From a virus (lineage: Duplodnaviria > Caudoviricetes), in IMG/VR virus record IMGVR_UViG_3300020049_002269, positions 2,188-66,187 of that record: a stretch of DNA of 64,000 bases; one strand, given 5' to 3'. The notes under the pieces were generated by a model. That model did no database searches. It saw nothing but the letters and a program-made list of their open reading frames with translations, and had not been told where the DNA came from. Numbering within the stretch: position 1 is the first letter of the stretch; the number at the start of each line of letters is the position of its first letter. The position numbers were made by a program, and so were the translations under genes. Below are positions 4,500 to 64,000 of the stretch, one piece after another.

Positions 4500-4685
4500 T
4501 TACTGACCCAGCAGTGTGGCCTTGCCGGTGCTGGCACCGGTCACGCCAGAGGTACCTGTCAGCAGCGTTCCGCCGACGATGCCCGTGCGGTTGCGCTTGG
4601 CATTGTCCGTCAGGTTGGACGTGTCGGGCTGCTTAATTTCTTGCGGGGGCGGCGGGGGCGGTGGAATCTTGGGCGAGCTGCACAT
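4500..4685 (-). CDS. Small virion-associated protein
   Basis: 61 aa, Pro-rich N-terminus and TLLTG...KATLLGQ C-terminus, typical of the pre-portal gene in podoviruses. Confidence 0.6.
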   Translation of the reverse strand: MCSSPKIPPPPPPPQEIKQPDTSNLTDNAKRNRTGIVGGTLLTGTSGVTGASTGKATLLGQ

Positions 4686-10374: not shown

Positions 10375-10402
10375 TTGACGGATGTTTAGCATGTGCTAAA
10401 GT
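10375..10402 (+). promoter_or_regulatory. Sigma70 promoter with overlapping palindromic operator
   Basis: TTGACG-N16-TAAAGT; operator TTTAGCATGTGCTAAA at 10385-10400. Confidence 0.65.
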
Positions 10403-10439
10403 TCAGACATCGACAACGCAAACGGAACGGAGCAGCAAA

Positions 10440-10748
10440 ATGGCACTCGACTTCAACGACGCAGAACAGACCCACTTCGGCTTGACCGTCAACGCCCCCT
10501 ACGTGACGTCTCGTGTCAGCTACCTGGGCGGCGAGGTCACCTTGATGGTGACTGTGTCTCTCGACAAGCGCAGCGACTGGGTAAACGGCATCTTGGAGAA
10601 CAGCCGCTACGCCAAGTTCTCGATCGAGAGCGACGGCACCATTGAGCACTTCTCCGGCAGTCTGCCGAAATTCCGCAAGTGCAAGGTTGTCGACCTCGAC
10701 AGCGCTGCCGCAAAGCTCAACACCTGGGTCAGAAAGATCGCCGCCTAA
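10440..10748 (+). CDS. Hypothetical early protein
   Basis: MALDFNDAEQTHF...; GGAG RBS in the conserved leader; true start is downstream of the track start. Confidence 0.65.
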   Translation: MALDFNDAEQTHFGLTVNAPYVTSRVSYLGGEVTLMVTVSLDKRSDWVNGILENSRYAKFSIESDGTIEHFSGSLPKFRKCKVVDLDSAAAKLNTWVRKIAA

Positions 10749-19989: not shown

Positions 19990-20357
19990 CCACCCAATCC
20001 GTCACCACTGCACCACCCGGCGAGTTGCACTGGCGCTACACGGTGCCGCGCAACACCGACAGCAAGATGCTGCTGCTGAACCTCGGGGGCGTGGCCATCA
20101 TCGGCAGTTGGTACGGGGCAGTGGGCGAACACTTCCTTGCGTGGTGCCCGCTACCGAAGCGCGATAAGGGGCTTGAGGTTTCGCTGGGCTTGGTGCTCGA
20201 CTGCTACGACGCCGGGATTCTGAATGATTTTGGTGGCGGGAACGTCGAATGGTGGCAGGACTACATCCGAGCCGAGCTTGGGAACGCTCACGACTTCTAC
20301 CAGTCGCAAATCGCCCACCACGACATCACTGCCCAGGCCAAGAAGGAGACGCCATGA
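19986..20357 (+). CDS. Hypothetical protein
   Basis: ATGA-coupled; WCPLPKRD and VEWWQDYIRAEL segments. Confidence 0.55.
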   Translation: MTTQSVTTAPPGELHWRYTVPRNTDSKMLLLNLGGVAIIGSWYGAVGEHFLAWCPLPKRDKGLEVSLGLVLDCYDAGILNDFGGGNVEWWQDYIRAELGNAHDFYQSQIAHHDITAQAKKETP

Positions 20358-20563
20358 CACCGACCAGAGAGCAAGTGATTGCAGCACCCATCGAGTCGTA
20401 CAGCGCCGAGGATCGAGCCTTCTTCGCGTTTTGGTACGCGCACATGAAAGACGATCTGATGCAGCCGCCTTTGCACGAGTGCAGCCATGCAGTCGCGCGC
20501 TACATCTTCACCGCAGGCCGAGAGCAAGGGCTCAGGGAGGCGGAGGAGGCGTGTGAGGCCTAA
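20354..20563 (+). CDS. Hypothetical protein; stop codon lies in the first box of attC1
   Basis: MTPTREQVIAA...; TAA at 20561-20563 inside GCCTAAC. Confidence 0.55.
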   Translation: MTPTREQVIAAPIESYSAEDRAFFAFWYAHMKDDLMQPPLHECSHAVARYIFTAGREQGLREAEEACEA

Positions 20564-20618
20564 CCAGACAGCTGGGCGGCGGCCACTTGTGGACGTCCGC
20601 TTGAGCGCCCGGTTAGGC
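20558..20618 (-). other. attC site 1 (61 bp)
   Basis: + strand GCCTAAC-cagaca-GCTGGGC-N21-GCTTGAGC-gcccg-GTTAGGC; 7-6-7...8-5-7 geometry with extra G in the 8-bp box; left L box degenerate. Confidence 0.8.
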
Positions 20619-20664
20619 CTGGTGGCAGATGCTCAACTATTTCAAACTTTCTTCGCTTTCCCTA

Positions 20665-20693
20665 TTGCGTTACGCGTAACGATGCGCTAAAGT
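20665..20693 (+). promoter_or_regulatory. Sigma70 promoter with 14-bp palindromic operator
   Basis: TTGCGT-N17-TAAAGT; CGTTACGCGTAACG at 20668-20681. Confidence 0.65.
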
Positions 20694-20730
20694 ACACACA
20701 TCGACAACGCAAACAGAACGGAGCAGCAAA

Positions 20731-20937
20731 ATGAAGCACCACGTAGGAATCAAGAGCAAGGCAACGGGTCAGATCGTTGTGATCGGCGGCAATCGCTGCC
20801 AGCGCTTCGCTTTCACCGGCAACGGAGTCGTCACCCCCAAGGCGTTCGACACCCTGCCCGAGGGTCTTGAGAAGTGCCAACACTGTGCTGCGGAACTCGC
20901 CCGGGCTCGTGCCCGCCTTGCACGCAAGCACGCTTAA
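20731..20937 (+). CDS. Hypothetical cassette protein (68 aa)
   Basis: GGAG RBS in the conserved leader. Confidence 0.6.
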   Translation: MKHHVGIKSKATGQIVVIGGNRCQRFAFTGNGVVTPKAFDTLPEGLEKCQHCAAELARARARLARKHA

Positions 20938-20947
20938 ATACGACCAG

Positions 20948-21068
20948 GGCTTCGGCCCGCCCACCCCTCACATGACCACAGATGCCCCCAAGCCGATGAC
21001 GAACGCGGAACGCCAGCGCGCTTTCCGCGCCCGCAAAGCAGCACAAACAGCAGCCGAGGTGCGCGGCG
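20948..21068 (+). repeat. Direct repeat copy 1 (121 bp; copy 2 at 63880-64000)
   Basis: 120/121 identical; single C/A difference at 21013/63945 (synonymous Arg codon). Confidence 0.95.
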
Positions 21069-21163
21069 TGTTCGCCCGCCCCGATGACCACCAGGCCGTG
21101 AAGGACTACGCCGCCAAGCTGGCCAAGAAGCGGGCGAAGGCGGAGAAGGCTGATGGGGCCTAA
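20972..21163 (+). CDS. Small basic helical putative DNA-binding protein
   Basis: MTTDAPKPMTNAERQRAFRARKAAQ...; stop inside the attC2 box; duplicated at the window end. Confidence 0.7.
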   Translation: MTTDAPKPMTNAERQRAFRARKAAQTAAEVRGVFARPDDHQAVKDYAAKLAKKRAKAEKADGA

Positions 21164-21213
21164 CCAATAAGTTAACCGGCGCCGTCGGCGTCCGGTTGAA
21201 CTGGCGGTTAGGC
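21158..21213 (-). other. attC site 2 (56 bp)
   Basis: GCCTAAC-caataa-GTTAACC-ggcgccgtcggcgTcc-GGTTGAAC-tggcg-GTTAGGC; extrahelical G and T on the + strand. Confidence 0.92.
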
Positions 21214-21240
21214 GTTACGGACTAAACAGAAAGGATGCAC

Positions 21241-21522
21241 ATGAGCACCGAAGCAATGAAACTTGCGCTTGAGGCAATTCAGGACTTGCGAGGCTATCGA
21301 CCAGATATTGATAAGGCAATCGACGCGATCCGCACCGCCATCCAGCAGGCAGAGGCCCAGCAGCCCGCCACGCCTGAGCGGGTGCCGATGACGGATGAAG
21401 AAATAGGTTATTGGTATTCCCGCACACCATCAAACTTTGTATTCAGCCACTTCAAGGCAGCTATTCGCTCAGCCGAAGCCCACCACGGCATCACCACCAC
21501 CCCGCAGCCAAGTAACGCCTAA
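21241..21522 (+). CDS. Hypothetical cassette protein (phage mosaic type)
   Basis: MSTEAMKLALEA...AEAQQPA...MTDEEI...AIRSAEAHHGI; GAAAGGA RBS; stop inside the attC3 box. Confidence 0.7.
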   Translation: MSTEAMKLALEAIQDLRGYRPDIDKAIDAIRTAIQQAEAQQPATPERVPMTDEEIGYWYSRTPSNFVFSHFKAAIRSAEAHHGITTTPQPSNA

Positions 21523-21639
21523 CGCTGAGGTAACAGGCGCGCCGACTACCGGCGCAAACAAAGGAGAGGAAGCATGAACACACGAAACATCAAAACGAAG
21601 CTGCTGATCGGCGCGTCCTTGTTGACCGCCGTGTTAGCG
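21517..21639 (-). other. attC site 3 (123 bp), overlapped by the start of a lipoprotein gene
   Basis: GCCTAAC-gctga-GGTAACA-ggcgcgccga...tcggcgcgTcct-TGTTGACC-gccgt-GTTAGCG. Confidence 0.8.
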
Positions 21640-21816
21640 GCTGGGTGCAGTAATGAAAACTTGAATTTGCAACTAAGCAATGCCGTTAGCGAAGCAGACA
21701 AGCATACAGGGGTGATTCTATATAGCGGATATAGCTTCCAGCTTGTGCGCGTGAATATCAACGGCGTGGATTACATCGCCAACAGCAAAGGCGGACTTGT
21801 TCGTGTTGACCGCTAA
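21574..21816 (+). CDS. Small lipoprotein (cassette gene)
   Basis: MNTRNIKTKLLIGASLLTAVLAAG-C lipobox; GGAGAGG RBS inside attC3; stop inside the attC4 box. Confidence 0.75.
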   Translation: MNTRNIKTKLLIGASLLTAVLAAGCSNENLNLQLSNAVSEADKHTGVILYSGYSFQLVRVNINGVDYIANSKGGLVRVDR

Positions 21817-21912
21817 CGTTGCCAATAACCGGATACCAACGGCGCCGCAGGACTGACCGGAGCGCACCACGGCCACCCGCCGATGGTATTCCGGTTGATT
21901 GGCTGGTTAGGC
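21811..21912 (-). other. attC site 4 (102 bp)
   Basis: CGCTAAC-gttgcc-AATAACC-ggataccaacggcg...cgccgatggtaTtcc-GGTTGATT-ggctg-GTTAGGC. Confidence 0.9.
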
Positions 21913-21939
21913 CCGACGTGACCAACTAGGAGAACCACT

Positions 21940-22182
21940 GTGCAGATTACAGAGTACGTGCCCGCCGAGAAGTTTGGCCAGTTCCACGCGATCCTGTGCG
22001 CGACAGGTGGGCGCTACCTACGCGACCCATTCCCGTTGTGGGCGCGCGTGGAGGTGCATTACGAGCCAGGCGACTACAAGGCGCACTGCGAGGCATGGGC
22101 GCGCTGTGTGACGCCGATTCGAGAGGTCAGGCGAGATCAATGGTGGCGCGTGGCGCTGCGCCGCTGTGGACTGCGGGCCTAA
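21940..22182 (+). CDS. Hypothetical cassette protein (80 aa)
   Basis: GTG start with AGGAG RBS; stop inside the attC5 box. Confidence 0.65.
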   Translation: MQITEYVPAEKFGQFHAILCATGGRYLRDPFPLWARVEVHYEPGDYKAHCEAWARCVTPIREVRRDQWWRVALRRCGLRA

Positions 22183-22233
22183 CAAGACAGCTAAGCGCGC
22201 GGCGTAGCCGTCCGCTTGAGCGAACGGTTAGGC
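22177..22233 (-). other. attC site 5 (57 bp)
   Basis: GCCTAAC-aagaca-GCTAAGC-gcgcggcgtagccgTcc-GCTTGAGC-gaacg-GTTAGGC; clearly related to attC1. Confidence 0.92.
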
Positions 22234-22251
22234 GGCGCATCGGAGGATCAC

Positions 22252-22494
22252 ATGGACGACCCGCAAGAAAGAGCAAAGCGACTGGCGACAACAGCCGCCG
22301 AGGAATTTGTTAGGTGCAACGGCATCTCGACCGGCACGCCAGATGAATTCATTTTTCACGGCGCAGACCTTGCCGATGAGTATTTTCAGGACTGTATCGC
22401 GCACCTGAAATGGGCCGGCGAATGCGTGGTTTTTGAGCATGATGAAGAAACGACGGTTCTTCTCGGAGATTACACATTGGGGAGCTTTGAATGA
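22252..22494 (+). CDS. Hypothetical acidic cassette protein
   Basis: MDDPQERAKRL...; GGAGG RBS just after attC5. Confidence 0.65.
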   Translation: MDDPQERAKRLATTAAEEFVRCNGISTGTPDEFIFHGADLADEYFQDCIAHLKWAGECVVFEHDEETTVLLGDYTLGSFE

Positions 22495-22766
22495 GCAAAT
22501 CAACAGTGCCGCAGCGCGCCAAGAAGTACGCAGACAACTTCAACGCATCGCAAGACCTGACGCTGCAACACGCCGCATGCGCGGGGTTCAGGGCCGGATT
22601 TGAAGCGCACAAACGCGACGTTCGGCCAACACTGCACGATCTTGAGGACGAATGCCGTCGCAGGTTCTATTACCTGAGCAAGATGGGTCTATGGGATGAC
22701 TACCTGGCCAGAAAAGAGCAGGGCGAATTTGAGTTCGTGCGCGGCATTAAGCGCTGCGCAAAGTGA
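22491..22766 (+). CDS. Hypothetical cassette protein (91 aa)
   Basis: ATGA-coupled to the previous ORF; ends 1 nt before the GCCTAAC box. Confidence 0.6.
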   Translation: MSKSTVPQRAKKYADNFNASQDLTLQHAACAGFRAGFEAHKRDVRPTLHDLEDECRRRFYYLSKMGLWDDYLARKEQGEFEFVRGIKRCAK

Positions 22767-22805
22767 CGCCTAACCGTTATTAGGCGTCGGAACCTGACGG
22801 ATAAC
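22765..22805 (-). other. attI-like tyrosine-recombinase core site
   Basis: GACGCCTAA-CCGTTA-TTAGGCGTC (9-bp arms, 6-bp spacer), no L boxes; on minus an upstream GTTATCC lies 31 nt before the G/TT crossover. Confidence 0.55.
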
Positions 22806-22842
22806 GATGGCCCTCACTGGGCCATCCACACAGAAAGCACAC

Positions 22843-23031
22843 ATGAGCTTTACCATTACCCCAACGCGATGCGAAATCTGGGGCGAAGAACTGGAAGCGG
22901 TGATTGAGATGCAAGACAAGTACGCCTCCAGCGTCACCATCAAGGCGCTGCAATCGCCCGCCTCATGGCGCGAACTGGCCGAGGCCGTGCAGTGCGCACT
23001 GGAGACGATGCACCCGGAGTCAGCCAAATGA
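22843..23031 (+). CDS. Hypothetical protein
   Basis: MSFTITPTRCEIW...; coupled to the next ORF. Confidence 0.55.
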   Translation: MSFTITPTRCEIWGEELEAVIEMQDKYASSVTIKALQSPASWRELAEAVQCALETMHPESAK

Positions 23032-23228
23032 CCGACACCAAAGTAGCTTGGAAGCGCCGAGCATTGAGGGCTGAGCAGGAGCTTGAGGACCTTCGGAAAA
23101 TCCGCGATTCCGAGACGGACATGCAGCGCAGCTTGCTCAGGCAGGCTGGCGGGTTTGCCGTGGCGATCAGCGAAATTGAGGACGCTATCCAAGCGGCAAA
23201 AGACTACATCGGAGGGAGTGCACGATGA
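23028..23228 (+). CDS. Hypothetical coiled-coil protein
   Basis: MTDTKVAWKRRALRAEQELEDLRK... Confidence 0.55.
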   Translation: MTDTKVAWKRRALRAEQELEDLRKIRDSETDMQRSLLRQAGGFAVAISEIEDAIQAAKDYIGGSAR

Positions 23229-23539
23229 CACGCGAACAGAAACTAGCCCACCTTCAAGCGTGGCACGACGCCATGACCCGCGCAGACGACGCAATCCAGC
23301 CGGTCATCGACGCGCTCAAGCTGTGCGGAGAAGACCCCATCACGAACACTGTATGGCAGTTGCAAACCGACCTCACGCGGGCCTATGCCGAGATTCTGGA
23401 TGACGCGTTTGAATCGCTGAGCTGGTACGCGAGCGAGAACGACATGGGCGCGAAAGGTAGAGAGGCTGGCATCGGATCAGATGTGCGCCCAATCCGCACG
23501 GTGGAAGACCTGCTGTGGCTGATTGAGGTGACAGCATGA
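23225..23539 (+). CDS. Hypothetical protein
   Basis: 104 aa; LSWYASENDMG...IRTVEDL; GGAGG-like RBS. Confidence 0.6.
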   Translation: MTREQKLAHLQAWHDAMTRADDAIQPVIDALKLCGEDPITNTVWQLQTDLTRAYAEILDDAFESLSWYASENDMGAKGREAGIGSDVRPIRTVEDLLWLIEVTA

Positions 23540-23665
23540 GCCGCAGAGCACGCGCCCGCCGCGAGGCCATCGAATCCAAGTACGTCGCCATGCTTGAGGA
23601 TGACGACACAGACGAAGCAGACTGGGAAGACGCGGACTATAACAGCCTGCGACTGTATGACGAGA

Positions 23666-24118
23666 TTAGCGAGGATTCACCGGCCAGGCTTCAATCATTG
23701 TCCTGAGGTCTGTGACGTGTCCGTCAGCTTTTCCCGCCAGCGCTGTAAGCTCTGCTGCACACTCTCCGAATACGTCTGCTGAGGCAATGGAGTAGTCAAC
23801 TGCGGAGGCGGGGGAAGCTGTGACGGCTGCAGATCGCTTTTTGATGGTGATGCGCAGCCGGTCAAGCTCAGAGCGAGCACCGTCAGCAGCAAGGCGGATT
23901 TCGTTTTCTCGTGTGCGCGCATTGTTCAGGGCCTCCGTATATTGGTCAGTGATGAGGCGCGTTTTGCGCTCTGCCTCGTTTCGTTCGGCTTGGCGCTCTG
24001 CCTCTATGGCGGAAATCTGTGATTGGTAGTGCGACTCAACCCGCCACCCATTGACAACAGCCCCCGCCACAAACGCAGCAAGCACCACCAACCCCTTAAC
24101 GTACACAGTCTGGATCAT
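23666..24118 (-). CDS. i-spanin (Rz-like)
   Basis: N-terminal TM helix GLVVLAAFVAGAVVNGW followed by coiled coil; downstream of the endolysin. Confidence 0.75.
   Translation of the reverse strand: MIQTVYVKGLVVLAAFVAGAVVNGWRVESHYQSQISAIEAERQAERNEAERKTRLITDQYTEALNNARTRENEIRLAADGARSELDRLRITIKKRSAAVTASPASAVDYSIASADVFGECAAELTALAGKADGHVTDLRTMIEAWPVNPR
23695..23922 (-). CDS. o-spanin lipoprotein (Rz1-like), embedded in the i-spanin
   Basis: Lipobox LSLTG-C, Pro-rich mature part, different frame fully inside Rz. Confidence 0.75.
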   Translation of the reverse strand: MRAHEKTKSALLLTVLALSLTGCASPSKSDLQPSQLPPPPQLTTPLPQQTYSESVQQSLQRWREKLTDTSQTSGQ

Positions 24119-24633
24119 TTGACCACCTCCTGAGCAATGGCAGAAGCGACAAGCCATTTGCGTGCGTTGTAAGTCTCTAGGTCCGCTTTGTTGCTGATGA
24201 AGAAGACCTCGACCACCATGCCGCCAGCGCGGACAAAGCCCAACCGGCCACGCGCCGTCTGAGTCTGGTCGATCCATCCCTGATCACCTCTCAGACGCAT
24301 ACCAAGCACATCGGCAATAGCTTTAGCGATCCTCTGCGCCTTGGCCTTGTCACGCGGCATAGCGACAACCTCAACACCCGTAGCAGTCTGGTTGGCCGAT
24401 GCGTTGCAGTGCAATTCAATCGCACAATCAGAACCCGGCACAAGCGTCAGTGCATGGGCAAGAGGCAGGTTCTGCCATGCCTCACCATCTGTCCTGACAT
24501 CATGACCCGTGAGCCTAACCTTGTGCGCCACACAATCACGAAGCCACGTCATCAAGTCGCGTTCGTTCTCGCCATGCGCTACTGCGCCAGGGTCTTTGTC
24601 GCTGTGTCCTGCTGTGATTGTGATGGTTTTCAT
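24115..24633 (-). CDS. Endolysin, N-acetylmuramoyl-L-alanine amidase (Amidase_3)
   Basis: ITAGHS..DPGA...E, IELHCNAS, GVEV, VVEVFFISNKAD; start MKTITIT. Confidence 0.88.
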   Translation of the reverse strand: MKTITITAGHSDKDPGAVAHGENERDLMTWLRDCVAHKVRLTGHDVRTDGEAWQNLPLAHALTLVPGSDCAIELHCNASANQTATGVEVVAMPRDKAKAQRIAKAIADVLGMRLRGDQGWIDQTQTARGRLGFVRAGGMVVEVFFISNKADLETYNARKWLVASAIAQEVVK

Positions 24634-24854
24634 GTGATCAGTGTAAGCCATGAGGCCATAATTACACCACCGATGACCGTCGCCAGCGCGTCGATGCGGT
24701 CGGGCGTGCCGTGCCCATGTGCATCCCATACTTCTTTGCCGACTGCTGCCACGATGACAGCCAGCATCGCCGGGACGACGCCCCACGGCAGCAGGGCCGC
24801 AGCGACGACAGCGCCTGCGAGTGTGTGGGCGATTTTGTCGATGGAGATCATCAC
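24630..24854 (-). CDS. Small membrane protein
   Basis: DKIAHTLAG...KEVWD...DALAT, hydrophobic. Confidence 0.6.
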   Translation of the reverse strand: MMISIDKIAHTLAGAVVAAALLPWGVVPAMLAVIVAAVGKEVWDAHGHGTPDRIDALATVIGGVIMASWLTLIT

Positions 24855-26719
24855 GCCACCCGCACTTGCAGCACCGACCCGTTGCGGTACAGCCCACCGA
24901 TTGGGATCCCGCCAGTAGCTGCCGCCGCATCGCTTGCGTAGGCTGGAACGTCTTGGATCAGCGTAGTTCCTCCGCCGAGCGCAATGTTGTTGAACACGTT
25001 GTTGAATCGCACCAATCGGCTTGTGGTGCCAAATGCGTTCAGTGTTGCGCCATCACGAAACACGTTGTTGTAAATAGTGATGTCCTGAGCATCACCATTT
25101 GTCCCTGCCGTTGCCCCAGGCTGACCGCCTATAGCTACCTCTTTTGAGAAGACGTTACCGTCTACAACCCAGCGATTTGGCGCATTGGTGCCGTTAGTGT
25201 TTGGTCCTGAATAAATATCCGTCGTGCCAGTAGTTCCGCTGAACACGTTATCCGAAATCTTCCAGTCGTTCCCGCCGCTGCTGGACGATGTTTGCGCAAG
25301 CAGCAGTCCGTTCTGGCAGTTCTTGACCCTGTTTCCCGTGAAGGCGACATTGCTTGACGACAGGTGATAGATGACGTGTGTCAGGTTCTCGAACTGATTC
25401 CCTGAAATAATCTTTTCGCCGCCGCTGGCGAACATACAGATAGCGTAGAAATTGCCTGTTGGCGAGACCCCGGCCACACGGTTATTCGTGAACTGAATCG
25501 AATGGCTGTACGCCCCAGAAGACACATCCAACACACACGCGGAAGGAAGCGCGGTGTTAGTGCGCAAAAAGATATTCCCATCAATGACTGTGTTCTCTGC
25601 GCTGTTCAGCAGATAGATGTACCCGCTGTTGCCGCCAGAGCAGACCACGTTGTCAAACACGTTGCTGCTGATGATGGTTTCGCCCAGCGTGTCCTCAAGA
25701 TGGATAGCCGAGTCACCGGCCACGTTCTTGACTGTGTTGCCGCTGATGATGACGCCGCGCACGCTGGTGATGCCCACAAAACGCTTTTCGGTTGCGGCTG
25801 TCGGATACCCGGCGCTGCCAGTGAACACGTTGTTTGTGATCGTCCAGAACTCAGAAGCCCCCGTCGATGTCTGGTTGGCCTCAACGAAGTCGGCCCCCAT
25901 GTTGACTGCTGTGTTGCCGTCAATCAGGACATGGTTGGATGAATAGCCCGCTTGCCCGATGATGCCGTAGCCTGTTGAGTCAAACGTACACCCACTGACG
26001 GTTACGTTATCGCACTCCCAAAGCCAAACCCGCTGATTCCCGCCGTGGAAATACACGTTCAGGAATTTGACGTTCTGCGAGTCACTGATAACCCGGATGC
26101 CCCCGTCAGCGCCCGCCGTGCCGTCCAACGTCAGATCGCGGATGCTCAGATTGTCGAAGCCGTTGGTGTCGATGTAGACGCTACCAGCCGCAGATTTGAG
26201 TACGCTGTCATGCCCCAACCCAAAGATTGACTGACCATCCGCCGTAAACGCAACGCTGGTTTCGTAGAGCGTGATGCCTGGCGGAATAAGAACAGATTTG
26301 CCGGTGTTGAGCGCATCCTGAAGGGAAGAATAGTCATTGACGCTCACAAACTCCCGCAGCTTTGCCTGCACAGTCGTGGCGACTGCGCCAGAGCCAGACC
26401 CGATGAACCCCACCAGCGCAGCGCCGCCAGTTGCGGCCAGGTCTGCGCGAAGAACACTAGCCCCATCAACAGAAACAAACTGCGCACGGATCGTAACTGT
26501 CCGACCATTACCTACGACGGTAATGTCATACAAACCATCAGGCGCATAGAAAGCAACCTTAGCAGAGCTGTCGGCAGTGAATGGGTTTGCCAGAGGGGAA
26601 CCAGATTCGTCCTGCAAACCAGTCGCAAGCGTAGCTGTTCCTGCCTCGTAAACAGTGACGGTAGCACCCGGCATGATATTACCTGATGCATCTTGCGCGA
26701 AGTATGTTTTCAGTTCCAT
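24851..26719 (-). CDS. Tailspike / depolymerase with right-handed beta-helix
   Basis: N-terminal QDASGNIMPGATVTVY..NPFTAD adaptor, many pectate-lyase-like repeats (ISGNTV, FTNNRV), C-terminal GGLYRNGSVLQVR. Confidence 0.8.
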   Translation of the reverse strand: MELKTYFAQDASGNIMPGATVTVYEAGTATLATGLQDESGSPLANPFTADSSAKVAFYAPDGLYDITVVGNGRTVTIRAQFVSVDGASVLRADLAATGGAALVGFIGSGSGAVATTVQAKLREFVSVNDYSSLQDALNTGKSVLIPPGITLYETSVAFTADGQSIFGLGHDSVLKSAAGSVYIDTNGFDNLSIRDLTLDGTAGADGGIRVISDSQNVKFLNVYFHGGNQRVWLWECDNVTVSGCTFDSTGYGIIGQAGYSSNHVLIDGNTAVNMGADFVEANQTSTGASEFWTITNNVFTGSAGYPTAATEKRFVGITSVRGVIISGNTVKNVAGDSAIHLEDTLGETIISSNVFDNVVCSGGNSGYIYLLNSAENTVIDGNIFLRTNTALPSACVLDVSSGAYSHSIQFTNNRVAGVSPTGNFYAICMFASGGEKIISGNQFENLTHVIYHLSSSNVAFTGNRVKNCQNGLLLAQTSSSSGGNDWKISDNVFSGTTGTTDIYSGPNTNGTNAPNRWVVDGNVFSKEVAIGGQPGATAGTNGDAQDITIYNNVFRDGATLNAFGTTSRLVRFNNVFNNIALGGGTTLIQDVPAYASDAAAATGGIPIGGLYRNGSVLQVRVA

Positions 26720-63555: not shown

Positions 63556-63642
63556 TCCCGACTGATCCGTGTGGGCTTTGCTTGCGTGCACTAGCGGTAG
63601 TGTTAAGATCACTACATCGACAACGCAAACGGAGAACGCAAG

Positions 63643-63867: not shown

Positions 63868-63879
63868 ACTGAACACCAT

Positions 63880-64000
63880 GGCTTCGGCCCGCCCACCCCT
63901 CACATGACCACAGATGCCCCCAAGCCGATGACGAACGCGGAACGACAGCGCGCTTTCCGCGCCCGCAAAGCAGCACAAACAGCAGCCGAGGTGCGCGGCG
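63880..64000 (+). repeat. Direct repeat copy 2, containing the 5' part of a second copy of the MTNAERQR gene (ATG 63904); runs off the edge
   Basis: 120/121 identical to 20948-21068. Confidence 0.95.

Follow-up and report, generated by a model that had tools for sequence, protein, structure and literature searches.

A short palindromic site at positions 22765-22788 of the window (the whole 64,000-nucleotide stretch of phage DNA analysed here) appears, from comparison of its copies in other contigs, to be a repeatedly used integron-type recombination joint. We lean towards the explanation that the right half of this joint (22774-22812 at least) is a conserved docking site of the attI or delta-attI type, which would act as double-stranded DNA and be used by an integron integrase (IntI) of the host.

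Orientation of the attC array

Three canonical attC sites of the array on the + strand, attC1 (20556-20620), attC2 (21156-21215) and attC5 (22175-22235), scored 67.8, 73.1 and 75.3 bits, respectively, with a covariance model (R1) that was built solely on + strand phage attC sites. Two further + strand sites are less regular: attC3 (21517-21639) is a long site overlapping the start of a lipoprotein gene and reaches 17.1 bits (E 0.25), and attC4 (CGCTAAC ... GTTAGGC, about 103 nt, 21812-21914) was recognized by eye only, with no R1 report at E ≤ 1. The first cassette in canonical orientation (22236-22773, + strand) contains two overlapping, family-less open reading frames (22252-22494 and 22491-22766), and searches of PHROGs and Pfam assigned no protein family to any of the seven cassette reading frames or the four downstream of them.

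The initial annotation had taken the minus strand as the canonical direction of this array, and both the positions of the bulged bases and the behavior of R1 on a known integron confirm it. The orientation was read from an alignment of 29 attC sites from the window and viral contigs, in which the R box spans 7 bp, compensatory changes are seen in the L box, and a bulged G and a bulged T stand at 16 and 23 nt from the 3' end. When the + strands are folded, as for attC2 with its G16 and T23, these two bulged bases lie on the 3' arm, opposite the AAC arm, and in the sites of the array they are 6 bp apart. The rule for the attC bottom strand, as given in the available part of Nivina 2016 (PMC5027507), is that the extrahelical bases lie on the arm opposite the AAC triplet and, for IntI1, are separated by 6 bp. 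In addition, with R1 the aadA1 attC of plasmid R100 (In2 integron) scores 46.7 bits when read from the strand opposite to the gene, and the strand of the aadA1 gene yields no match at E ≤ 1; attC matches in a true integron of Aromatoleum likewise fall on the strand opposite the array direction. The + strand, on which attC5 and the other sites were annotated, is the attC bottom strand; the earlier orientation is therefore right, and in canonical orientation the array begins, as had been proposed, with the short site at 22765-22788.

In the arrays of the window and of L039-L084, cassette reading frames lie mostly on the attC bottom strand, the opposite of classical integron cassettes. Under a crude longest-ORF rule, 69 intervals between attC sites divided into 32 bottom-strand, 6 top-strand and 31 ambiguous cases. 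Separately, contigs of two sequencing runs (X1 and X9) join position 21155 to 22175 with nine shared letters, although the sides of the joint are only 20-27 letters long; this form would be expected from a deletion of three cassettes by attC2 x attC5 recombination, to which it points weakly.

Anatomy of the short site

The site is an unstranded palindrome, GACGCCTAA-CCGTTA-TTAGGCGTC, whose arms occupy 22765-22773 and 22780-22788 and whose loop occupies 22774-22779; as a DNA fold it reaches -9.2 kcal/mol (z -4.8). The sequence thus bears out the 9-bp inverted arms and 6-nt spacer described before, and sequence and fold agree with the further statement that L boxes are absent; extrahelical bases are absent too. 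On the + strand the site reads TGA-CGCCTAA-CCGTTA-TTAGGCGTC from 22764 to 22788, and the palindrome overlaps the TGA stop codon (22764-22766) of the reading frame 22491-22766. To its right, on the minus strand, is a direct-repeat-like box, GTTATCC (22799-22805, GGATAAC on the + strand), whose G lies 31 nt 5' of the crossover G in GTTAGGC, exactly where it had been placed. A second hairpin, GATGGCCC-TCACT-GGGCCATC, was found by folding at 22806-22826 on the + strand.

Taken by itself, the 9-bp palindrome is not significant. The window contains three perfect palindromes with 9-bp arms and loops of 3-8 nt, compared with a mean of 2.05 and a maximum of 7 in 40 first-order simulations, and as the palindrome is no commoner than chance, the signal comes from comparison and context. 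The box GCCTAAC occurs 12 times in the window against 4.41 expected, a count reached by none of 100 shuffles, and 9 of the 12 occurrences fall in 20558-22774, where they frame attC-like sites. In the short site this box (22768-22774) is the R box, GTTAGGC on the top (minus) strand; conservation among the copies described below starts at its last + strand base, C22774, and it is here that the site trades cassettes with attC sites. From these boundaries, crossover is inferred to take place between 22773 and 22774 (AA|C on the + strand, G|TT on the top strand), a position resolved only to the common CTAAC(C).

The short site is not an attC. With R1 it scores 15.4 bits (E 0.68), where attC1, attC2 and attC5 reach 67.8-75.3 bits, and of the marks of an attC only the 6-bp R pairing is conserved, with neither L boxes nor bulges. 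Nor does it look like an intrinsic terminator, which would have a T-run behind a GC-rich hairpin: here GGAACC and no T-run comes after the stem, and a terminator scan made no call at 22765-22830, so that the possibility of its being simply a terminator, raised as a refutation of the attI-like reading, became improbable.

A conserved element in eight copies

Eight copies of the element were found in seven contigs, one each in the window, L077, L078, L079, L081 and L082 and two in L084. Conservation runs rightwards from C22774 for at least 45 nt in all eight copies and for about 78 nt in seven. The conserved core (22774-22812, minus strand) consists of the spacer, an inverted L-box-like GACGCCTAAT (top strand, 22779-22788), an 11-nt variable stretch and GATAACGATGGCC, and from the C of the box onwards the copies have in common CCG(T/A/C)TATTAG..TC, 11 variable bases and (G/T)ATAACGATG.CC. 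Part of this agreement was forced, as the metagenome scan that added three of the contigs used a search pattern requiring CCGWTATTAGGCGTC-N11-GATAACGATG. The inverted GCCTAAT box is present in seven of the eight copies, with the eighth diverged; the repeat-like box is GATAAC in seven and TATAAC in one; and seven also carry the second hairpin and a ribosome-site block.

To the left of AA|C, by contrast with the conserved right side, the eight copies adjoin eight unrelated neighboring cassettes or sequences. The left half-box itself varies (GCCTAA in six copies, GTCTAA in one and CGCTAA in one), and one cassette length further leftwards there is a canonical attC in six copies, a truncated attC in one and none in one. 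The 9-bp arms are peculiar to the window, where three outer bases come from the adjoining cassette, while most other copies pair 6 bp (GCCTAA/TTAGGC) or less; judged by this comparison, the left arm belongs to the cassette and the right arm to the conserved element. The exact 24-mer of the short site gave no matches in viral contigs because its three outer bases are cassette-specific.

In the window, L077, L078 and L079 the short site is the first site of the array. In L084, however, a single array has two copies, separated by cassettes and a canonical attC, which shows that the element does not serve uniquely as the head of an array. L082 has one copy and no attC within about 4-5 kb; there the element comes after the backbone genes that follow it elsewhere, and a convergent phage integrase (PF00589, 34.1 bits) ends 66 nt away. 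With its element but no array, L082 looks as an empty platform would. A scan of viral contigs with an attC arm motif returned 39 loci in 36 contigs, many of them arrays of 2-8 sites, and within the DNA fetched only 3 of these 36 other attC-bearing contigs have the element; such arrays can therefore exist without it. An all-against-all comparison of 35 loci revealed no second kind of head element beyond the last attC, only shared cassettes. Two further observations were made in these arrays. At 1971-2000, L084 contains a half attC with the left arm GCCTAACCAATAAGTTAATCGGCGCCGC and no right arm, and at 4595-4633 in another viral array (L069) there is a perfect palindrome with 11-bp arms, GCCTAATCCGC...GCGGATTAGGC (39 nt, GCCTAAT...ATTAGGC), which may be another short R-box site.

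These comparisons bear on two alternatives to a docking site. One is that the element acts only in RNA or transcription, as a terminator, attenuator or leader of the downstream gene, its likeness to an R box being incidental. A stop codon is overlapped, two stable hairpins fold, the conserved block reaches as far as the ribosome site and start codon (ATG) of the gene behind it, and in L077, L079 and L082 a different palindrome of up to 12 bp, CGTTATTAGGCG-N8-CGCCTGATAACG, forms within the element instead. All of this would suit such a role, but the missing T-run and silent terminator scan, the unconserved left arm and the exact-boundary cassette swaps, which it leaves unexplained, make it very improbable as the whole account. 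Given the alternative palindrome in those three contigs, the DNA might nevertheless have an RNA role in addition.

The other alternative holds that the site is an attC that has lost its center and keeps only its R boxes, the site of a "leader plus gene" cassette that recombines, or once recombined, as an attC-like hairpin. Bottom-strand cassettes do read "attC then gene", and the element likewise precedes a gene; the unit in L084 has a canonical attC on its far side; TTAGGCGT also terminates attC2-type sites; and folded attC sites are easily deleted by replication slippage, according to the available part of the attG preprint (10.1101/2022.09.11.507474). What counts against it is that the L box and bulged bases are missing and the R1 score is low, that the stem beyond 6 bp is unconserved, that the gene after the conserved leader differs (three genes, and none in L082), and that the arrays of the viral contigs contain no full-length attC version of the element. 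We regard it as unlikely, though it is the strongest of the competing readings.

Cassette swaps at the joint

The initial annotation had proposed that related phages would differ in their cassettes exactly at 22773/22774, and this is what was found, both in the eight different neighbors of the eight copies and in three cassettes that end at the short site in one contig and at an attC in another (a half attC in one case). In the window, the cassette ending in gene c20972 adjoins attC2, but in L078 it adjoins the short site, its two versions being identical up to GCCTAACC and unrelated beyond. A second gene shows the same pattern, running into the short site in L081 and into the half attC in L084. 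The third is the first cassette of the window itself: a 725-letter contig of run X9 is about 95% alike to 22209-22775 and then continues into a canonical attC. In addition, both flanks of the array in L078 match those of the window at 93-98% identity, yet the cassette at the joint is a different one. Read joints with sides of less than 30 letters, such as 20618->22755 and 21216->22765, were excluded as evidence of swaps, and uncovered parts of 20300-23700 in four runs were not counted as informative. In combination, the conservation edge, the eight neighbors and the swaps with attC point to a recombination joint. Joints do therefore map to the proposed insertion point, while the attI-like reading as a whole is only partly supported.

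It could be argued instead that a single insertion into an ordinary secondary (attG-type) site left the site behind as a fossil of its left junction, with no specific role, and that the diversity arose by later homologous exchange between phages. IntI1 does insert at GWT sites (10.1101/2022.09.11.507474), and inverted GTTRRRY motifs occur at the boundaries of phage attC clusters (Qi 2023, PMC9892861), as the available parts of these two sources describe. Homologous exchange in a common flank, however, cannot create new joints at the box, and eight different joints are seen, with three of the cassettes also in attC contexts; this argues for repeated site-specific exchange. An inverted GCCTAAT box and GTTATC at attI1-like distances are not accounted for by such a fossil, and the retention of 45-78 nt in phages with little other DNA in common (L077) suggests that the element is under selection. 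A fossil junction thus seems improbable, and a docking site remains the reading that we prefer.

Source of the recombinase and bacterial counterparts

The statement that the phage carries no intI held up, as TIGR02249 and PF00589 give no match in the 66-kb record of the window. This record contains no tyrosine recombinase of any kind, and the enzyme would therefore have to come from the host. None of the eight viral records searched, a set apart from those of L081, L082 and L084, contains an integron integrase above the cut-off.

The bacterial genomes sampled yielded no counterpart, either of the site or of the exact attC motif; for the motif the sample comprised 401 genomes of one class, none of which had it, a count that applies to that sample only. 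A search of genome contigs with a core-only pattern returned two matches in total, both attributed to chance: one in Oceanisphaera has no attC, no GATAAC and no RYYYAAC box, and one in an Aromatoleum metagenome-assembled genome lies inside a reading frame of 995 aa and has no attC and no GATAAC. That Aromatoleum metagenome-assembled genome (locus L099, G008:C1:425500-445000) does contain a true chromosomal integron, with an IntI of 448.7 bits and at least nine attC sites of a longer family, and it was rejected as a counterpart, its attC sites scoring only 14-36 bits and its attI region being, by eye, unlike the short site. Phages related through the helicase were also considered; none of 36 loci (L001-L036) has an attC array, and since the part of the window between 20196 and 24667 has no homology in them, they offer no empty-site comparison. 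GenBank phages include no close relative, with at most 4% of the query covered; the nearest GenBank matches of the phage-A part of the record are phages of Burkholderiales. The sequencing runs in which this DNA was found are wastewater, river, freshwater and digester metagenomes from nine studies.

Comparison with attI1 and other known sites

Read on its top strand, the site is GTTATCC-GTCAGGTTCCGAC-GCCTAAT-AACG-G|TTAGGC or, set out by distance, GTTATC, 14 nt, GACGCCTAAT, AACG and G|TT; attI1 of R100 is GTTACGC-AGCAGGGCAGTC-GCCCTAAA-ACAAA-G|TTAAAC. The similarity of spacing claimed earlier is real, with GTTA at -32 in R100 attI1 and at -31 here. The label given to the attI1 box probably needs correction: a GTTA does stand at -32, but this repeat is the proximal of two, which we take to be DR2 and not DR1. 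The sites agree in the GTTA-N17-CCTAA spacing; both have an inverted CCTAA-type box, which in the phage site would be the L box, and both meet the first cassette at a G|TTRRRY R box. In canonical orientation the phage site, like attI1, comes first in the array in the window, L077, L078 and L079. The R box conforms to GTTRRRY with the joint at G|TT, and the boundary and the half-box variation fall at AA|C in all eight copies. Overall identity to R100 attI1 is 15 of 32 positions, a value reached by 49 of 10,000 shuffles with an anchor that was chosen post hoc.

The two sites also differ. Compared with attI1, and also with an attI2-type core, the L-to-R spacing of the phage site is 1 nt shorter; it has one GTTA repeat where attI1 has two; it has no intI or Pc promoter beside it, and no promoter was predicted at the short site; the element may occur twice per array or alone; and cassette genes run towards it, whereas they run away from attI1. 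The proposal of an attI-like insertion site is supported by the R box, the joint, the distance to the repeat and the comparative signs of use; it does not hold for a unique head of the array (L084), and in L082 there is no array at all.

Truncated attI sites of 14-18 nt are reported to replace attC sites inside arrays and to be excised and inserted by IntI1 (PMC12901181, from the part of the article available). The phage site resembles these delta-attI sites in being a short partial attI (core ...G|TTRRRY) in the place of an attC within an array, and the published layout "attC-ORF-delta-attI" is that of L084, with its attC, gene and short site. The core published for delta-attI2, AATAAAATG|TT, is similar to AATAACGG|TT of the phage site, and the sequence before the phage crossover also resembles that of a Shewanella attI, as far as the published excerpts go. 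In those excerpts, however, delta-attI sites are truncated forms of the known attI1 or attI2 in clinical integrons with intI, whereas the phage element is a distinct sequence, conserved over 45-78 nt and so far found only in phage-like viral and metagenome contigs.

Clusters of attC sites without an integrase (CALINs) have already been published for phages, with attC arrays in phage genomes that lack intI, as here (Qi 2023, PMC9892861, in its available part). That source also describes a Shewanella prophage, M16-3, with an attC cluster headed by its own attI, which is one nucleotide from the attI of S. oneidensis MR-1, and with a complete integron including intI in the same prophage; and a phage, TJE1, with inverted GTTRRRY motifs at the boundary of its attC cluster, interpreted there as a terminator that might also give rise to illegitimate recombination. 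In contrast to these cases, as far as the available text describes them, the present site is conserved across several phages, shows comparative signs of repeated use and has no known bacterial counterpart.

Insertion of cassettes by IntI1 at GWT (attG) sites, which as double-stranded DNA require a minimum of 18 nt and from which excision is possible, is described in the available part of a preprint (10.1101/2022.09.11.507474). The phage site would likewise be a double-strand target outside an integron platform with a G|TT crossover. According to the same text, attG sites have only GWT and weak flanking motifs in common and are unlike attI, while the phage site has an inverted box and a repeat laid out as in attI1. 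Since GTT at the crossover is trivial as a criterion for an attG site, we would argue that the additional attI-like boxes speak for more than an attG.

Downstream genes and genome context

The conserved block leads into a ribosome-site-like AGAAAG and the ATG (22843) of the first downstream backbone gene, a family-less protein of 62 aa (22831-23031, + strand). In L078, L079 and L084 a homologue of this gene comes after the element, in L082 before it. The earlier view that the site is at the promoter-distal end of the early operon was correct for the array but not for the operon, as four more small + strand reading frames (22843-23706) follow. An ATG within GATAACGATGG, in frame with the ATG at 22843, is a putative start (window 22807-22842), and the 12 codons between the two ATGs are nearly conserved ahead of three different genes. 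Further downstream, an Rz-like spanin reading frame (23666-24277, minus strand) with an embedded out-of-frame reading frame (23695-23922, minus strand) that has a lipoprotein-like signal shows the usual Rz/Rz1 layout, and an amidase-type endolysin (24115-24930) adjoins it.

The record looks composite. A podovirus-like part (1-20200) with head, portal, terminase and primase genes, a DNA polymerase operon and high GC3 extends up to about 20200, and a myovirus-like complete genome of about 42.9 kb extends from 20943 to 63875, with the last 126 nt (63875-64000) repeating 20943-21068 at 98.4%. The 66-kb record may be a chimeric assembly or a true tandem of two phages. The zone of the possible join contains attC1; attC2 through the short site are inside the second phage. 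A promoter- or leader-like block of 52 nt is found at 10391-10442 and 20682-20733 with 92% identity, and in a similar form at about 63590-63640; these places are ahead of the early operon, inside the c20731/c20972 cassette and near the end of the record.

Proposed mechanism and biological meaning

In the explanation that we favor, the TTAGGC that completes the palindrome would be contributed by the adjoining cassette. An integron integrase supplied by the host, probably of the class 1 kind, would pair the site with the folded bottom strand of a cassette attC, and strand exchange would occur at G|TT, so that cassettes could be gained, lost or exchanged at 22773/22774, a short way ahead of the backbone genes from 22843. 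The anatomy and orientation of the site, its conservation boundary, the differing neighbors, the swaps and the absence of a recombinase are observations. From them we infer IntI as the probable agent, action on double-stranded DNA and the direction of events, whether gain or loss.

A broader and more tentative reading is that certain phages of wastewater and freshwater maintain, as a group, an integron platform without an integrase, in which the docking site would borrow the integrase of the host to load and swap cassettes from a phage-specific pool. With their genes on the attC bottom strand, such cassettes would be read from the phage early promoter and would be antisense to Pc in a bacterial integron, and for this reason the pool might be phage-specific. 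Habitats of the kinds sampled in the runs with this DNA commonly harbor class 1 integrons.

Integron cassettes are thought to enter arrays at attI, next to intI, and integrase-less attC clusters, including those of phages, are usually taken as passive debris. A literature search that covered articles without their supplements returned no published conserved attI-like site that lacks an integrase, is found in several phages and has comparative evidence of use. The site described here bears, in a phage without an integrase, what appears to be the footprint of repeated and exact cassette exchange. If this is true, phages would be recipients and shufflers of cassettes by means of an enzyme supplied by the host, and a natural example would be added to the recently described delta-attI and attG substrates.
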